Below are positions 2,015 through 9,412 of a stretch of DNA of 16,516 nt, in pieces (position 1 is the first letter of the stretch; each line of letters opens with the position of its first letter). The notes beneath the pieces were generated by a model, which had not been told where the DNA came from, searched no databases, and was given only the letters and a program-made list of their open reading frames with translations. Source of the stretch: a virus. Taxonomy: Duplodnaviria > Heunggongvirae > Uroviricota > Caudoviricetes. The translations under genes and the position numbers were made by a program. The stretch covers positions 1 to 16,516 of the IMG/VR virus record IMGVR_UViG_3300010261_000025. One strand, 5' to 3'.

Positions 2015-2099
2015 GGTTGAGCAACGAGCCGTGCGAGGCGTTAGTTATGGATAAATTGGTTGCAGGGTGATATGTAAATAGGTTAATACGTAGCACTCT

Positions 2100-2135
2100 T
2101 CGAATAGTTTCGTATTTTTGTTGTCCTATAATCAT
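2100..2135 (+). promoter_or_regulatory. Candidate sigma70 promoter for the cargo operon (TATAAT at 2127-2132)
   Basis: A perfect TATAAT hexamer lies about 60 nt upstream of the ATG at 2194; the -35 region is weak. AT-rich context. Confidence 0.3.
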
Positions 2136-2193
2136 AAGATGACAGCTTCCATGCACCACAATCCGTGGCGTTTGAGGCATAAGGAGGAAAATA

Positions 2194-2393
2194 TGTCTGA
2201 ACTTCTGCGCAAAGTTCTCTCTGCACCAGGTAAGATTATGCAGGATGTCATCCGTCAGGATGTGCAACAGTCTGATAATAGTAAAATTATCACAGATGCT
2301 AATGGTGCGGCGACCTTAAACATGAACAATAAGCAGGTACGTGAATCAATGCGTGCCAGAATGGAAGAATTGGCTGCAAAACGACAAGGATGA
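2194..2393 (+). CDS. Hypothetical small hydrophilic protein (66 aa), first gene of an AT-rich cargo operon
   Basis: ATG at 2194 preceded by AAGGAGGAAAAT. Its stop TGA (2391-2393) lies 3 nt before the next ATG, indicating translational coupling. No recognisable motif. Confidence 0.5.
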
Positions 2394-2396
2394 GGA

Positions 2397-3179
2397 ATGG
2401 GACCCTTAGTTATCATGGTCGTCCTGGTTTGCGGGTTCTGGTACACCGAAAATCATTACCAGTCCCGCATCAGGCAAGCAAGAAGTAATGGTTGGAATTC
2501 CTATTTTTATGTAGCTATGCATGGTTGTAAGTTTGCTATTCAGGGGTTTACTCTGATGGCTGTTACATTCGTTACCTTGCTAGTTATAAGCTCAGTTATC
2601 AATGTTTTTGGTTATTTTTGGCCTAAGTTACATGTGGACTTTTATTCATGGCTCACAGACGTAAAGATAATGTCTTACCCATTGTTCTTTGTGTTGTCTA
2701 TGCTGCTTGCGGTGTTTATTGCTTATGACCAAGGTAACAATGCGCGAAGAGCAATAGAAAACGAAGAGATTCGTCAATCTGCATATCGCGAGATGGCAGC
2801 TCAAGATGGAATTGAGTCACTGTTAGTTCAGGCTATAGATGAAGGTAAGCTCATCTTTGTTACGCTAAAATCCAGAAAAGTTTACATTGGTTACGTAGCT
2901 GCTCCTCGGATGGAGCATCAGGAAACTCAGCATCTGGCTCTCATACCATACATCAGTGGTTATCGTGATAAAGATACGCTCAGATACCATGAGCAGCATC
3001 GTTACTATGAACTTTACCTTAGTAAAAATATTACAGCAGACTCAACTCCACTGAACTTAAATCATTTTAGGCATGTAATCCCAATGGATCAGGTTGAGAG
3101 TATTTCAATATTTGATACTGAAACTTATAAATCTTTCGAAGATTTTTCTACGCCTGACCAGACCAAAGTCACTGCATGA
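2397..3179 (+). CDS. Hypothetical membrane protein (260 aa): three predicted N-terminal TM helices plus a ~150-aa soluble C-terminal domain; candidate phage-encoded defence/abortive-infection effector
   Basis: Hydrophobic stretches PLVIMVVLVCGFWY, FTLMAVTFVTLLVISSVINVFGYFW and IMSYPLFFVLSMLLAVFIAY. Visibly AT-rich compared with flanking phage genes. Sits in the variable region between gene A and the cos/portal end. Confidence 0.6.
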   Translation: MGPLVIMVVLVCGFWYTENHYQSRIRQARSNGWNSYFYVAMHGCKFAIQGFTLMAVTFVTLLVISSVINVFGYFWPKLHVDFYSWLTDVKIMSYPLFFVLSMLLAVFIAYDQGNNARRAIENEEIRQSAYREMAAQDGIESLLVQAIDEGKLIFVTLKSRKVYIGYVAAPRMEHQETQHLALIPYISGYRDKDTLRYHEQHRYYELYLSKNITADSTPLNLNHFRHVIPMDQVESISIFDTETYKSFEDFSTPDQTKVTA

Positions 3180-3296
3180 CTATGCCGCATGAATATGCAT
3201 GATCGTTCGAGGATCGTTTTTGCTGAGGCCCGCCAGTTCTGGTGGGCTTTTGCTTATGTCATGCACCTGCATGAAAATCGCTACAAAAAGCGGGCA

Positions 3297-3315
3297 GGCG
3301 TGGCGGGGATACGAG
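3297..3315 (+). other. Candidate cos (cohesive end) site
   Basis: GGCGTGGCGGGGATACGAG in a GC-rich non-coding island. As I recall them, the 19-nt cohesive ends of P2 (GGCGAGGCGGGGAAAGCAC) and 186 (GGCGTGGCGGGGAAAGCAT) match in the first 13 nt. The location between the replication side and portal Q is as expected for cos. Confidence 0.35.
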
Positions 3316-3394
3316 CGCGCGCAAACATGTTTACTTGCAATTAATGTAGATATATTCTGAAATTGATAACTTACACATGAAAGGAGACGTGAGA

Positions 3395-3586
3395 GTGGCA
3401 AAATATACACCGGGCCAGAAAGTAAAACATGCAACAGGACATGGTCCAATCATGGTAATTGATCACTACCAATCGGCTACAATGGCAGTTTGTACGTGGT
3501 TTATTGGTGCTAAGAACCAGCGCGGAGTTTTTCATGAAGATACTCTAGTTTTATTTGTTCCAAAAGCTGAGAGTGATGATGAATGA
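3395..3586 (+). CDS. DUF2158 (YodC-like) small protein, ~63 aa
   Basis: GTG at 3395 follows AAGGAGA by about 8 nt; the ATG at 3377 is an alternative start. Motifs GQKVKHATGHGPIMVI and CTWFIGAKNQRGVFHEDTL resemble the DUF2158 pattern (G.KV.LKSGGP.MTV ... C.WF.G ... F). Confidence 0.5.
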   Translation: MAKYTPGQKVKHATGHGPIMVIDHYQSATMAVCTWFIGAKNQRGVFHEDTLVLFVPKAESDDE

Positions 3587-3845
3587 TTCTCTGATAAAAA
3601 TAGTTGACTGGATGGTTAATACCACTCGTTCTAATGGTGTGTTGTATCAGTCCGAGGTTGTTGAATTTCTAATCAATGACTTTGGGGACGAGTTCATCAA
3701 AACTAATGAGAATGGTAATTACGCTATAAGCAGTACTGTGCTAGCAAATTTTAGAAAGGCTAGCAAAGACGATATAGTTTGGGATCGTGAACAGTTAGCT
3801 TGGCGTTTACGCAATGAAAGCGATTTACCCGGACGGATGCAGTAG
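3576..3845 (+). CDS. Hypothetical protein (~89 aa), translationally coupled to the DUF2158 gene
   Basis: Tandem ATG ATG at 3576-3581 overlaps the upstream stop (GATGATGAATGA). The ORF ends at 3845 and is followed by a hairpin terminator. No recognisable domain. Confidence 0.45.
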   Translation: MMNDSLIKIVDWMVNTTRSNGVLYQSEVVEFLINDFGDEFIKTNENGNYAISSTVLANFRKASKDDIVWDREQLAWRLRNESDLPGRMQ

Positions 3846-3862
3846 AGATAATACAGATAATA

Positions 3863-3903
3863 GTGAACAAGCTGATAATTTCAACTTGTTCACTTCTTTT
3901 TTA
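3863..3903 (+). terminator. Rho-independent terminator (possibly bidirectional) between the small-gene pair and portal gene Q
   Basis: GTGAACAAGCTG-ATAATTT-CAACTTGTTCAC hairpin (about 11-bp stem, one mismatch) followed by TTCTTTTTTAT. Confidence 0.6.
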
Positions 3904-4941
3904 TGACTGATTATTTTCTAAGCCATAATATTCAAATTTGACTACCTCTTCATCTAACCATTCATTAATTTCGGCAATGCGTTTTTGTAAAGGCATCAGT
4001 TCATTCCGAACAAATACCCGGCTGGCTTTCTCCACATCCCCAAACCCCCCTACATTATTAGGCATAATCCCCATCATCTGCGGCGGCACTCGGTGTGCTG
4101 CCATCATGTCGTCCCGGCTCACGTTCTTGATATTCAGAAACTCATCCTTCGCCGCGACTTCTGACAACGGGATGATCTGAAGCCCGTCCTTTTTGCCGTT
4201 AGGCGAGTACATAAACAGATTGCGGAAGTTACCTGGTCCTTTGGCGCTTTTCATCGCATTGCGGAGGTTGTTCACATCCTCCTGGTTTTGCGCGGCATCG
4301 GTCATGTACATGATGAAGCCTGCATGACTGCCGTTAATGTAATACTTTCGACGGAACAGCGTGGCGGACTCGTTGAGCAGGGCAGACGGAATGGCAGAAA
4401 GATAACCGGGCAGGCCGTAGATCTCCTGATTAATATCCGGTTCCATTAGATGAAAAATGCTGCCTTTCGTGAACTGATACGGCTGGGTTGTCATACCGTA
4501 TTGCACAAACCAGTAGGTATCCAGGTCTAACCCGCGTCGGGTGTATTTTGCCAGCGCAGGCTCAAGGGCGATAACTTCACCGAATCGGTTCGTGCGTTTC
4601 TCCAGGTAGGCGTTACCAAATACCAGATAGTCCTGCACAAAACGCGAAAAAGCCTGCTGGCTGAGCAGCGGATGAGGGATATAGGTACTGGTCAGAATGT
4701 TGCACTTTACTGCAATCGGGGAACTGTGATGCACGGCGGCGCGGAAGGTGCGCGCCAGTCCGTCAAAGCTGACGGGCGGCTCATACCAACGGTCCATCTG
4801 TACGCATTCCACATAGTCCAGCAGTTCACGGCGGTCCAGAACAGGAACGGGATCGCCGAAGCTGAATGCTTCGGCTGTAGTTTGACTTTTAAGCTGGATC
4901 TGTTTCGTCGCCGCAGCTCGGTTCTTCTTACTCTTTCCCAT
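3901..4941 (-). CDS. Q: Portal vertex protein GpQ
   Basis: 346-aa ORF beginning MGKSKKNRAAATKQ, with the size and gene order of P2 Q. The ATG at 4941 overlaps the stop of the upstream terminase gene; the ORF track extends one codon further to a TTG. Confidence 0.9.
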   Translation of the reverse strand: MGKSKKNRAAATKQIQLKSQTTAEAFSFGDPVPVLDRRELLDYVECVQMDRWYEPPVSFDGLARTFRAAVHHSSPIAVKCNILTSTYIPHPLLSQQAFSRFVQDYLVFGNAYLEKRTNRFGEVIALEPALAKYTRRGLDLDTYWFVQYGMTTQPYQFTKGSIFHLMEPDINQEIYGLPGYLSAIPSALLNESATLFRRKYYINGSHAGFIMYMTDAAQNQEDVNNLRNAMKSAKGPGNFRNLFMYSPNGKKDGLQIIPLSEVAAKDEFLNIKNVSRDDMMAAHRVPPQMMGIMPNNVGGFGDVEKASRVFVRNELMPLQKRIAEINEWLDEEVVKFEYYGLENNQS

Positions 4942-6707
4942 CAAAAAATCTCCACAATATTGCTGGTATTGGCGGATTCGCCCTGCAGCGGTTCGTTAAA
5001 CAGTGCGTGCATCGTTGCCCATGCCAGATCGGCGTGGCTGGCTTCTTCGCTGCGGCTGGCTTCATAGGTCGGGCGGTTGCCACTGGCGGTGGTGGCGCGA
5101 CGGATTGCCATAAATGACTGCGCAATGTCGGTATGTCCGGCGTCAAACTCCAGACGGCGGTGGCTGATAATGTCGTAGGCCTTGAGTACCAGGGCGTTTT
5201 TAACGTTGGGGTTGTAGACAAACTCCCGGACGGCAGGAAAGAACGCTTTCACGTTCTCGTAAACCCCGTGACCAACGCCGGTTGAGTCGATGCCGATGTA
5301 GGTCACGTTGTACTGCTCGGTCAGTTTTTTGATTGCGTCAGCCTGGGCGCGGAAGTCCATCCCGCGCCACTGGTGACGCTCAAGAATGCGAAACTTACCG
5401 CCCGGCACGGCTGGCGGTGCCACCACCACGCATCCGGCGCTGTCGCCGTTCTGCGTACCTTTTGCCGGGTCATAACCGATCCACACTTCGCGCCAGCCAA
5501 ACGGGCGCAGGGCCAGAGCATGAAAGTCGGTCCAGACTTCCCAACTGTCCACCATGCACGTCTGCAGCTCGCTGAGCGGAAACACGGACGCGAGATCGTC
5601 CACAAACTCGCACATCAGTAGGTTCTGGTATTCGTCCGGGCTGTACTCCATGCGCAACTGGTCGAGGTCGAACAGGTTACAGCCGCCGCGCACCGCATCT
5701 TCCACAGTGACTATCTGGCGGTACTGCCCGTCTGCGCACAGCAGGCCGGGGGCCAGATTGCTGTGGGACAGGTCGATGTCCACCTTATCGGCTTTGTTGC
5801 GCCCACGATTGAACAGCGCACCGGACCAGAACGGATAAGCACTGTGAGTCAGGCTGGATGGCGTGGAAAAATAGGTTTGTCGCCATTTTTTGTGAATAGC
5901 CATACCGGAAGCCACTTTGCGCAGCTCCTGGAATTTCGGTATCCAGAAATATTCATCCAGATACAGGTTGCCGTGATAACTCTGGGCCGTGCGGGCATTG
6001 GTGCCGAGGAAGTAAAGCGTGGCCCCGTTAGGAAGCACCATCGGATCGCCTTTCAGCTCCACCTCCACTTCTTTGGCGAAGTCGATGATGTACTGCTTAA
6101 AGACGTGGGCCTGTGCCTTACTGGCGGAAAGGAAAATCTGGTTACGCCCGGTAAGCAGGGCGTCAATCAGGGCTTCACGGGCAAAGTAAAAGGTCGCGCC
6201 GATCTGGCGTGACTTCAGCAGGTTGCGGATGCGGTTGGTTTTTCCGGCTTCCCACCAGTGGCGCTGGTAGTTGAACATGGAGGAATGGAAGATTTCTTCC
6301 AGCTTCTCAATCTGTTCATCGGTGAAGACATTTTTTTCCGGCTGACGGCGCGGGCCTTTGTTGCGGTTGGCGACGTTAGGGTTTAAGTCAGCTTCGTTGC
6401 CGCCATTGTTAAACTTGCCGATCCGCGCGTGGCGCTCAGACTGGCGCGCCAGCAGGTCAATCTCTTTGAAATCTTTCCCTTCTTTGTGCTCCTTCATAAT
6501 GAGCTGGCAGTAGCGTGCGGCGGTGGTGAGCTGCATCTGATCCAGCGGCCCATAGTCACCCCACTTGTCGCGTTTTTTCCAGCTGTGAACGGTTGCAACT
6601 TTCTCGCCCAGCATTTCAGCAATGCGGGCGACGCGGTATCCCTGAAAGTACAGCAGCATGGCCTGCCGACGGGGATCGAGATCTGCGGGTGTCAGTGTGG
6701 TGTTCAT
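4941..6707 (-). CDS. P: Terminase large (ATPase) subunit GpP
   Basis: 588-aa ORF with the size and order of P2 P, co-oriented with Q and divergent from O. Confidence 0.9.
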   Translation of the reverse strand: MNTTLTPADLDPRRQAMLLYFQGYRVARIAEMLGEKVATVHSWKKRDKWGDYGPLDQMQLTTAARYCQLIMKEHKEGKDFKEIDLLARQSERHARIGKFNNGGNEADLNPNVANRNKGPRRQPEKNVFTDEQIEKLEEIFHSSMFNYQRHWWEAGKTNRIRNLLKSRQIGATFYFAREALIDALLTGRNQIFLSASKAQAHVFKQYIIDFAKEVEVELKGDPMVLPNGATLYFLGTNARTAQSYHGNLYLDEYFWIPKFQELRKVASGMAIHKKWRQTYFSTPSSLTHSAYPFWSGALFNRGRNKADKVDIDLSHSNLAPGLLCADGQYRQIVTVEDAVRGGCNLFDLDQLRMEYSPDEYQNLLMCEFVDDLASVFPLSELQTCMVDSWEVWTDFHALALRPFGWREVWIGYDPAKGTQNGDSAGCVVVAPPAVPGGKFRILERHQWRGMDFRAQADAIKKLTEQYNVTYIGIDSTGVGHGVYENVKAFFPAVREFVYNPNVKNALVLKAYDIISHRRLEFDAGHTDIAQSFMAIRRATTASGNRPTYEASRSEEASHADLAWATMHALFNEPLQGESANTSNIVEIF

Positions 6708-8761: not shown

Positions 8762-9412
8762 ATGAGCCTGAGTCCCGCACGGCAGCATCGCCTGCGCGTT
8801 CAGGCTGAACAGGCCGCCCGCGAGGGCGGCAGTGTTCGCCACGCATCGGGCTATGACCTGATGCTGCTGCAACTGGCGGAAGACCGCCGCCGTCTCAAGG
8901 GCGTTCAGTCCACGGTCAAAAAAGCGGAAATCAAGGTGGAGCTGCTGCCGAAATATGCCGCCTGGGCGGAGGGAGTCCTGGATGCCGGAGGCGCTCAACA
9001 GGATGACGTGCTGATGTACGTGATGCTGTGGCGCATTGATGCCGGAGATTATGCCGGGGCGCTGGAGATCGGGCGTCATGCCCTGCGTCATGGCTGGGTG
9101 ATGCCGCTGGGTAACCGCAATGTGCAGACCGTGCTGGCAGAGGAAATGGCAGACGCGGCACAGAGCGCAATGCTTGCCACTACCGGGTTTGATGCCGATC
9201 TGTTGCTGCAGACGCTGGAGCTGACAGACGGTCTGGATATGCCGGACCAGTCACGGGCGCGTCTGCATAAAGCGATTGGCGCTGTCCTGAGTGAAAGCAA
9301 TCCGGCTTCCGCCCTTAATCATCTCAACCAGGCGTTACAGCTCGATCCCCGCTGTGGCGTGAAAAAAGACAAACAGCAGCTGGAGCGCAGACTGCGCAAT
9401 GACAGCCGCTGA
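8762..9412 (+). CDS. M: Terminase endonuclease (small) subunit GpM
   Basis: 216-aa ORF starting 4 nt after the N stop; RBS GGAG; P2 gene order N-M-L. Confidence 0.85.
   Translation: MSLSPARQHRLRVQAEQAAREGGSVRHASGYDLMLLQLAEDRRRLKGVQSTVKKAEIKVELLPKYAAWAEGVLDAGGAQQDDVLMYVMLWRIDAGDYAGALEIGRHALRHGWVMPLGNRNVQTVLAEEMADAAQSAMLATTGFDADLLLQTLELTDGLDMPDQSRARLHKAIGAVLSESNPASALNHLNQALQLDPRCGVKKDKQQLERRLRNDSR

Follow-up and report, generated by a model that had tools for sequence, protein, structure and literature searches.

The 152-bp island at positions 3173-3324 of the DNA analysed here (the window, 16,516 nt in full), together with the 19-nt motif that it carries at 3297-3315, very probably represents the genuine cos site of a Fels-2-like prophage of the P2 family, as judged from sequence comparisons. 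This reading is well supported because the island is homologous to the cos junctions of P2, 186 and P4 and because its 19-mer is the published 19-mer of phage SEN8, which supports the proposal, made earlier from the sequence alone, that a motif resembling the P2 and 186 cohesive ends could be cos. The cos identity of exactly this 19-mer is thus already in print, and the finding is correct but ordinary. The features that we did not see singled out in the literature examined are incremental: a sharp-edged 152-bp module between two variable slots, a conserved pair of GATC sites, and conservation that is one-sided around the cut.

By its gene content and closest matches, the window comes from a temperate P2-family prophage of Escherichia coli, of the Fels-2-like or Felsduovirus type (Fels-2/186 type). 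Pfam searches identified the C-terminal part of gpA, a DinI-like protein, the portal protein, a gpP-type large terminase, a gpO scaffold, a P2-type major capsid protein and a gpM-type small terminase, and the order of genes is gpA, DinI, cargo, cos, cargo, portal and large terminase, which places the motif at the syntenic position. The large terminase is expected to be the enzyme that cuts cos, and the small subunit the one that recognises it (Table 1). The top DNA matches of the window are P2-like phages of Klebsiella and Escherichia, with ~96% identity across 84% of its length. A prophage in the chromosome of E. coli COL60J matches positions 2050-3950 at 99.9% identity, and its annotation includes integrase, CI, CII, Fil, Dam and gpA and continues to the tail tape-measure gene, where the stretch that was fetched ends. 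Beyond this interval the two sequences diverge, for example through many substitutions in the gpA region (109-946). The window therefore derives from a mosaic relative, and for the same reason the intactness of the COL60J prophage is indicative rather than decisive for the window's own.

Table 1. Features of the cos region and of the neighbouring packaging genes, in window positions.
Feature	Positions	Strand	Basis or detail
Left-slot cargo, 66-aa ORF and 260-aa ORF	2193-3179	+	phrog_22451, phrog_3630
Conserved block read as cos, 152-bp gap-free island between unrelated variable cargo	3173-3324 (profile ~3172-3323)	+	conservation profile
Distal cluster, three (T)GCATG boxes	3173-3202	+	direct repeat family, inverted repeats
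Two GATC (Dam) sites 11 bp apart in direct repeat GATCGTT	3201-3218 (3201-3204, 3212-3215)	+	
GC-rich inverted repeat, followed by TTTTGCTT	3225-3250	+	-21.7 kcal/mol, z = -4.2
Proximal palindromic box pair, TCATGCA nn TGCATGA	3258-3274	+	inverted repeat
Equivalent of the 55-bp P2/P4 cos core: TGCATGAAAA..AAAGCGGGCA, 19-mer, CGCGCGC	3268-3322	+	alignment
Probable 19-nt cohesive-end sequence GGCGTGGCGGGGATACGAG	3297-3315	+	exact, once in window; homologous P2/186 annotation
First cargo gene, 63 aa, weakly DUF2158-like	3395-3586	+	GTG start 8 nt past AAGGAG
Second cargo gene, 89 aa, DUF6953	3576-3845	+	Pfam DUF6953 E = 5e-24
Hairpin common to the converging cargo and portal transcripts	3862-3894	.	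position of tQ (P2) and tW (186)
Portal gene, homologue of P2 Q and 186 W	3901-4944	-	Pfam Phage_portal; annotation of relatives
Terminase large subunit, homologue of P2 gpP	4941-6707	-	Pfam Terminase_5, Terminase_6N, Terminase_6C
Terminase small subunit, homologue of P2 gpM	8762-9412	+	Pfam Phage_term_smal E = 1e-40

The circular cos junctions of P2, 186 and P4 were rebuilt by joining the right and left ends of each genome and were aligned to window positions 3150-3400. The alignment with P2 and 186, which the sequence-only reading had put forward as a check, revealed homology directly. All four sequences display, in the same order, the distal TGCAT/GCATG boxes, a GC-rich inverted repeat, TCATGCA-nn-TGCAT, AAAA, AAAGCGGGC(A/G), the 19-mer and (T/C)GCGCGC, and beyond this point they are unrelated. 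Identity over the 152-bp block is 62% with P2, 70% with 186, 70% with P4 and 89% with SEN8, and over the 55-nt core it amounts to 41/55, 43/55, 43/55 and 52/55, respectively. On the strength of this alignment we take window positions 3268-3322, from TGCAT to GCGCGC, to be the counterpart of the conserved 55-bp cos core known from the literature. That core is credited to Ziermann & Calendar 1990 in PMC9594776, PMC3931495 and PMC5694545, and the extent of the functional P2 cos is taken here from these secondary citations. The location is also alike, since cos lies in P2, 186 and P4 between gpA-side accessory genes and the portal/terminase operon, and the homology with the window stops 7-9 nt past the 19-mer, as it does between P2 and P4.

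The 19-mer has the form GGCG(A/T)GGCGGGG... of the GC-rich P2-family cohesive ends. It agrees with 186 at 15 of 19 positions and with P2 at 14 of 19, the window having ATACGAG in place of AAAGCAT or AAAGCAC, so that it differs at 4 and 5 positions, respectively. The 19 nt homologous to it are labelled cosL/cos in the GenBank records of P2 and 186, and the P2 ends are 19-nt 5' extensions, as cited in PMC3931495. SEN8 and other Fels-2-like phages (Felsduovirus) have a 19-mer identical to that of the window. In SEN8, a plaque-forming Salmonella phage, it has been published as cos, assigned by annotation rather than by end mapping (PMC5427200), and the GenBank record begins at the 19-mer with the feature "putative cos site". 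We found the exact 19-mer in 102 of 138 unique related sequences, the carriers spanning many enterobacterial genera, among them Escherichia, Enterobacter, Citrobacter, Klebsiella, Pantoea, Tatumella and Erwinia. In the window it is intergenic, located after the 260-aa ORF that ends at 3179 and before both the plus-strand two-gene operon and the converging portal gene. The portal stop codon starts at 3901, which puts the 19-mer 585 nt from the portal gene, in agreement with the distance of about 600 bp given earlier.

A similar breakpoint is displayed by the hotspot of P4 satellites, which lies directly beside cos (PMC9122126). There the variable region starts right after the 19-mer and GCGCGC, on the same side of the cut as in the window, although this hotspot is carried by a satellite and not by a helper phage and is bounded by an integrase instead of a portal gene. 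In 75 P4-like loci with a recognisable cos, divergence sets in immediately past GCGCGC, the same breakpoint as in the window. No 19-mer of the ATACGAG type was found among 80 loci with P4 Psu; the test offered by satellites, which keep only what packaging needs, applies to 19-mers of the P2/186 type. The satellite cos blocks, located ~165 nt after psu, carry the 19-mer variants AAAGCAC, AGAGCAT, GGAGCAT and AAAGCAT.

The extent of the block was established on relatives drawn from 160 loci with a portal homologue (80 from GTDB species representatives and 80 from IMG/VR), in which the cos core was sought downstream of the portal gene. The boundaries can be read directly from a column profile of 102 unique relatives: the frequency of the top base is 0.8-1.0 within the block, which is free of gaps, and ~0.4-0.6 outside, with conservation dropping at both edges to the level of unrelated sequence over a few bases. 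Complete E. coli genomes display the same edges. Some of them, including CFT073, match the window at 99.7% over 2050-3324 and then diverge, while others match 3173-3950 at ~98% and diverge leftward; the sharing of either one or the other interval points to recombination breakpoints at the block edges. The 19-mer sits at the right-hand end of the block. About 124 of the 152 conserved bp are located upstream of the cut, on the side that would become the right end of virion DNA, and conservation towards the portal gene is limited to ~7-9 bp (CGCGCGC). Invariance is highest in the 19-mer and its immediate flanks, not in the hairpin, and outside the core the TGCAT boxes come next.

The island had also been described as non-coding, and this held in the relatives: no reading frame is kept across the block, the best frame being open in 29 of 107 relatives, and variability in the same 107 sequences lacks 3-nt periodicity. 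Three ORFs in the block (3189-3344, 3199-3360 and 3180-3449 on the minus strand) were rejected as merely mechanical, no frame being conserved in relatives. A short "hypothetical protein" CDS is annotated over the cos block in Yersinia phage MLG42 (3017-3160) and in several Klebsiella phage records; going by the comparison of frames, such calls are probably spurious. An Rfam search over 3100-3950 gave no match to the block, the sole match being a sub-threshold snoRNA within the cargo. The description of 3180-3376 as a GC-rich island stood in part. The interval is GC-rich (46.7%) when compared to the left (40.0%) and right (37.8%) cargo but not when compared to the window mean of 52.5%, and only its left part belongs to cos, since the right third (3325-3376) is an AT-rich leader of the cargo. 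The block proper has 53.9% GC, and a 37-nt core within it (3287-3323) reaches 73%.

Several elements can be distinguished within the block. The density of TGCAT/ATGCA is 32.9 per kb in the block versus 2.5 per kb in the whole window. The distal boxes are kept in P2, 186 and P4 and are nearly invariant in 107 relatives, and the proximal pair is kept in 186 and P4 and across the relatives. We infer that these TGCAT/GCATG boxes are putative recognition or binding repeats for the small terminase subunit. Of 107 relatives, 98 have both GATC sites, which are spaced by one helical turn, with the 7-nt spacer between them in 35 different forms, whereas the blocks of P2, 186 and P4 have no GATC at all. 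A phage dam gene lies beside gpA in 80 of the 94 relatives that could be assessed. Cleavage at the pac site of P1 is under Dam control, and by analogy the conserved GATC pair could possibly make packaging Dam-sensitive.

The GC-rich inverted repeat has a counterpart at the same place in 186 (CGCCAGAGCTGGCG) and in P4 (GCGCC..GGCGC). In 107 sequences, 91% of cells are paired, and cells with a double change number 10 versus 2.0 expected. The repeat could be an intrinsic terminator for rightward transcripts of gpA, DinI and the cargo, a putative role for which the double changes are few; alternatively it could be a protein-binding site.

By analogy with P2, the terminase, made of the subunits encoded at 8762-9412 and 4941-6707, would recognise the block and introduce staggered nicks on either side of 3297-3315. 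The nick positions are carried over from P2: the top strand would be cut before 3297 and the bottom strand after 3315, giving 5' overhangs, and virion DNA would bear 19-nt 5' cohesive ends with a left end starting GGCGTGGCGGGG. Because only ~7-9 bp are conserved downstream of the cut, the DNA beyond is free to vary, and the interval from cos to the portal terminator is a cargo slot, the contents of which are probably swapped by recombination anchored in the cos block and the portal gene. A second slot lies across cos, between DinI and the block. In the window, the right slot is occupied by a small two-gene operon, directed from cos to the portal gene and closed by the shared hairpin. Such a site would work like lambda cos (cosQ-cosN-cosB), with a nicking site next to a cluster of terminase-binding repeats. 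Lambda cos nevertheless has no sequence homology to the window and its overhang is 12 nt; moreover, its binding repeats are beside the first-packaged end, next to the terminase genes, whereas those of the window lie across the cut from the packaging genes.

The alternative that best withstands these data is that the block is a genuine cos homologue which is functionally dead, surviving by descent only in a cryptic or defective prophage. Close relatives in the databases do carry frameshifted gpA or cargo genes, and an IS1 insertion is found in one E. coli copy of the cargo. Against this, the 19-mer is identical to that of the plaque-forming SEN8 and the core agrees with it at 52 of 55 positions; the gpA reading frame of the window is open across the part covered, its portal, scaffold and capsid genes and those of both terminase subunits are full length, and the prophage of COL60J, which shares 2050-3950, has genes annotated from the integrase to the tail tape-measure protein. 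We therefore regard a dead site as improbable. Still further behind comes the possibility that the island is kept mainly for another role, as a terminator or insulator, a site for a regulatory protein or a small ORF, with the packaging site elsewhere. The strong terminator-like hairpin in the block and the short hypothetical protein in some GenBank records would speak for such a role, which is nonetheless very improbable: no ORF is conserved across the block and Rfam finds nothing there, the 19-mer and its flanks rather than the hairpin are most invariant, the region to which the block is homologous in P2, 186 and P4 is known from experiment to be cos, and a scan with the P2/186-derived pattern GGCGWGGCGGGGAWANNA, allowing up to 3 mismatches, revealed no second cos-like sequence in the window. 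Finally, a chance resemblance to the P2/186 cohesive ends in a GC-rich spacer has been refuted by the alignments and is next to impossible: although the degenerate pattern with 3 mismatches has at least one match in 74 of 200 shuffles and is not improbable by itself, its sole match in the 16.5-kb window is 3297-3315, without any mismatch, the significance of the 19-mer lies in this exact match and its homologous flanks and not in the degenerate pattern, and the motif shows ordered homology over 152 nt to three reference cos regions, a syntenic position and conservation in more than 100 relatives.

The window cargo at 3325-3900 fills the space from the cos core to the stop codon of the portal gene, within the gpA-gpQ interval and adjacent to cos. 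Canonical P2 had been thought to have nothing at this position, and it indeed has a cos-to-portal distance of 167 nt containing the terminator tQ and no genes; 186 likewise has 176 nt with the terminator tW. However, the further suggestion that the insertion site is unusual did not hold. Where a cos could be recognised (142 loci), the portal stop codon and the cos core are 94 to 5,345 nt apart (median 1,548), and the right slot is shorter than 250 nt in 13 loci (9%) and occupied in the other 129. SEN8 also has cos-to-portal cargo, encoding a 333-aa hypothetical protein and a putative HNH endonuclease in ~2.1 kb, whereas the window has the 63-aa protein and DUF6953 in 0.58 kb.

The variability of the slot was seen directly in the surveyed loci: 139 of the 142 right-slot sequences are unique, the content is hypervariable among syntenic relatives, and E. 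coli genomes share the flanks of the slot but not what it contains. Most of the larger right-slot ORFs (106 of 122, counting those of 110 aa or more) point from cos to the portal gene, like the two genes of the window. PADLOC and Pfam searches with 95 representative cargo proteins revealed known anti-phage systems among them, including AbiL, PARIS AriA/AriB, Old, AbiU, Septu PtuA and an Ec67-type retron (RT-Toprim, type I-C), besides TIR, PIN, AIPR, GmrSD, DprA, Cap4-type nuclease, SieB and Fic proteins. By these matches, the accessory genes of the right slot in relatives appear to be mostly anti-phage defence.

Variability extends to the opposite flank of cos, where 0-4.4 kb separate the DinI stop codon from the block; 25 of 90 loci have fewer than 250 nt there, and the old and tin genes of P2 are located on this side as well. 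The 66-aa and 260-aa ORFs that fill the left slot of the window have no match in Pfam, PADLOC or NCBIfam. The same left-slot DNA (2050-3324, 99.7% identical) occurs in CFT073, APEC O78 and other E. coli strains with different right-slot content, which indicates that the two slots reassort independently.

The cosL-gpQ position has been known as a hotspot since 1996 (PMC5694545, with Dodd & Egan 1996 and Nakayama 1999 as its sources; also PMC7826664). Dodd & Egan 1996 is cited for retrons Ec67 and Ec86 inserted in 186-related prophages at the cos-to-portal hotspot, with which the RT-Toprim retrons of the surveyed slot fit, and the hotspot literature (PMC5694545, PMC7826664) also describes, for phiRSY1-like phages of Ralstonia, extra ORFs located between cosL and the homologue of gpQ. 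Rousset et al. 2022 report 1,650 gene arrangements in 18,150 E. coli loci at gpA-gpQ, which they place "adjacent to the cos site" and describe as a defence hotspot (PMC9122126); a 2026 study repeats this (PMC13586616). The window shows the same locus and the same behaviour as the known cos-Q hotspot, with unrelated cassettes exchanged in the interval that the fixed cos core and the portal terminator delimit. Both PMC9122126 and PMC13586616 treat gpA-gpQ as one locus, whereas in the lineage of the window cos splits it into two independently variable slots. On the basis of these comparisons, the insertion site is the known hotspot, divided by cos into two slots in this lineage.

The location of cos fixes the ends of the virion genome for this prophage family and has little significance beyond annotation. 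The division of the locus has a more practical side: the gpA-gpQ defence hotspot is really two slots, and the 152-bp packaging module that parts them has very sharp boundaries of recombination. This could be used in automated hotspot mining, to delimit cargo, and in the design of cos-plasmid or phagemid vectors for Fels-2-like phages.

The two small genes at 3395-3845, said earlier to lie between cos and Q, are real, and RefSeq annotates the same two ORFs in COL60J, naming the second a DUF6953 family protein. The end of the first gene, with its stop codon, and the start of the second share 11 nt, which suggests translational coupling. The 63-aa protein matches Pfam DUF2158 with E = 7e-4, below the gathering score, and phrog_3261 with E = 8e-8. 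Neither protein matches a known defence family in PADLOC or NCBIfam. The AlphaFold model of the DUF6953 protein (mean pLDDT 80.6) is a small helix/beta-hairpin domain without a significant match in the PDB, the best hits being winged-helix regulators (E 0.27, TM-score ~0.25-0.3); the model of the 63-aa protein has a pLDDT of 56 and is unreliable, and its sequence has no match in the PDB.

A promoter scan of 3325-3395 revealed no convincing sigma-70 promoter for the operon, the best candidate by eye being an 8/12 match (TTTACT-17-TATTCT). The hairpin downstream of the operon folds at -15.9 kcal/mol on the plus strand, where it is followed by TCTTTTTT (z = -5.7), and at -19.7 kcal/mol on the minus strand (z = -6.4); the terminator scan reported it on the minus strand.

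The cassette is rare, being present in 8 of 5,426 complete E. coli genomes. A Klebsiella homologue occupies the same slot of another P2-like prophage, with 86% identity for DUF6953 and 89% for the 63-aa partner. The DUF6953 family comprises 639 cluster representatives at E <= 0.001, some of which have N-terminal extensions. Among distant homologues of 240 aa and 329 aa, one is a TIR-DUF6953 fusion with DUF6953 at the C terminus and one has a weak, sub-threshold HEPN match. These domain contexts hint that DUF6953 may serve as a sensor or adaptor in immune proteins.

It is possible, if rather doubtful, that the 63-aa DUF2158-like protein and DUF6953 form an undescribed minimal anti-phage or counter-defence module. 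Such a module would be consistent with a slot that is mostly filled with defence genes in relatives, with movement of the cassette as a unit between E. coli and Klebsiella, and with the TIR-DUF6953 fusion seen in other bacteria. Going by location and the fusion, our guess is a small defence, counter-defence or regulatory module, and a defence screen could reasonably include this rare pair of genes. One of the eight E. coli carriers, strain KL53, has the cassette interrupted by IS1B (NZ_CP030919.1, 2602004-2603355).
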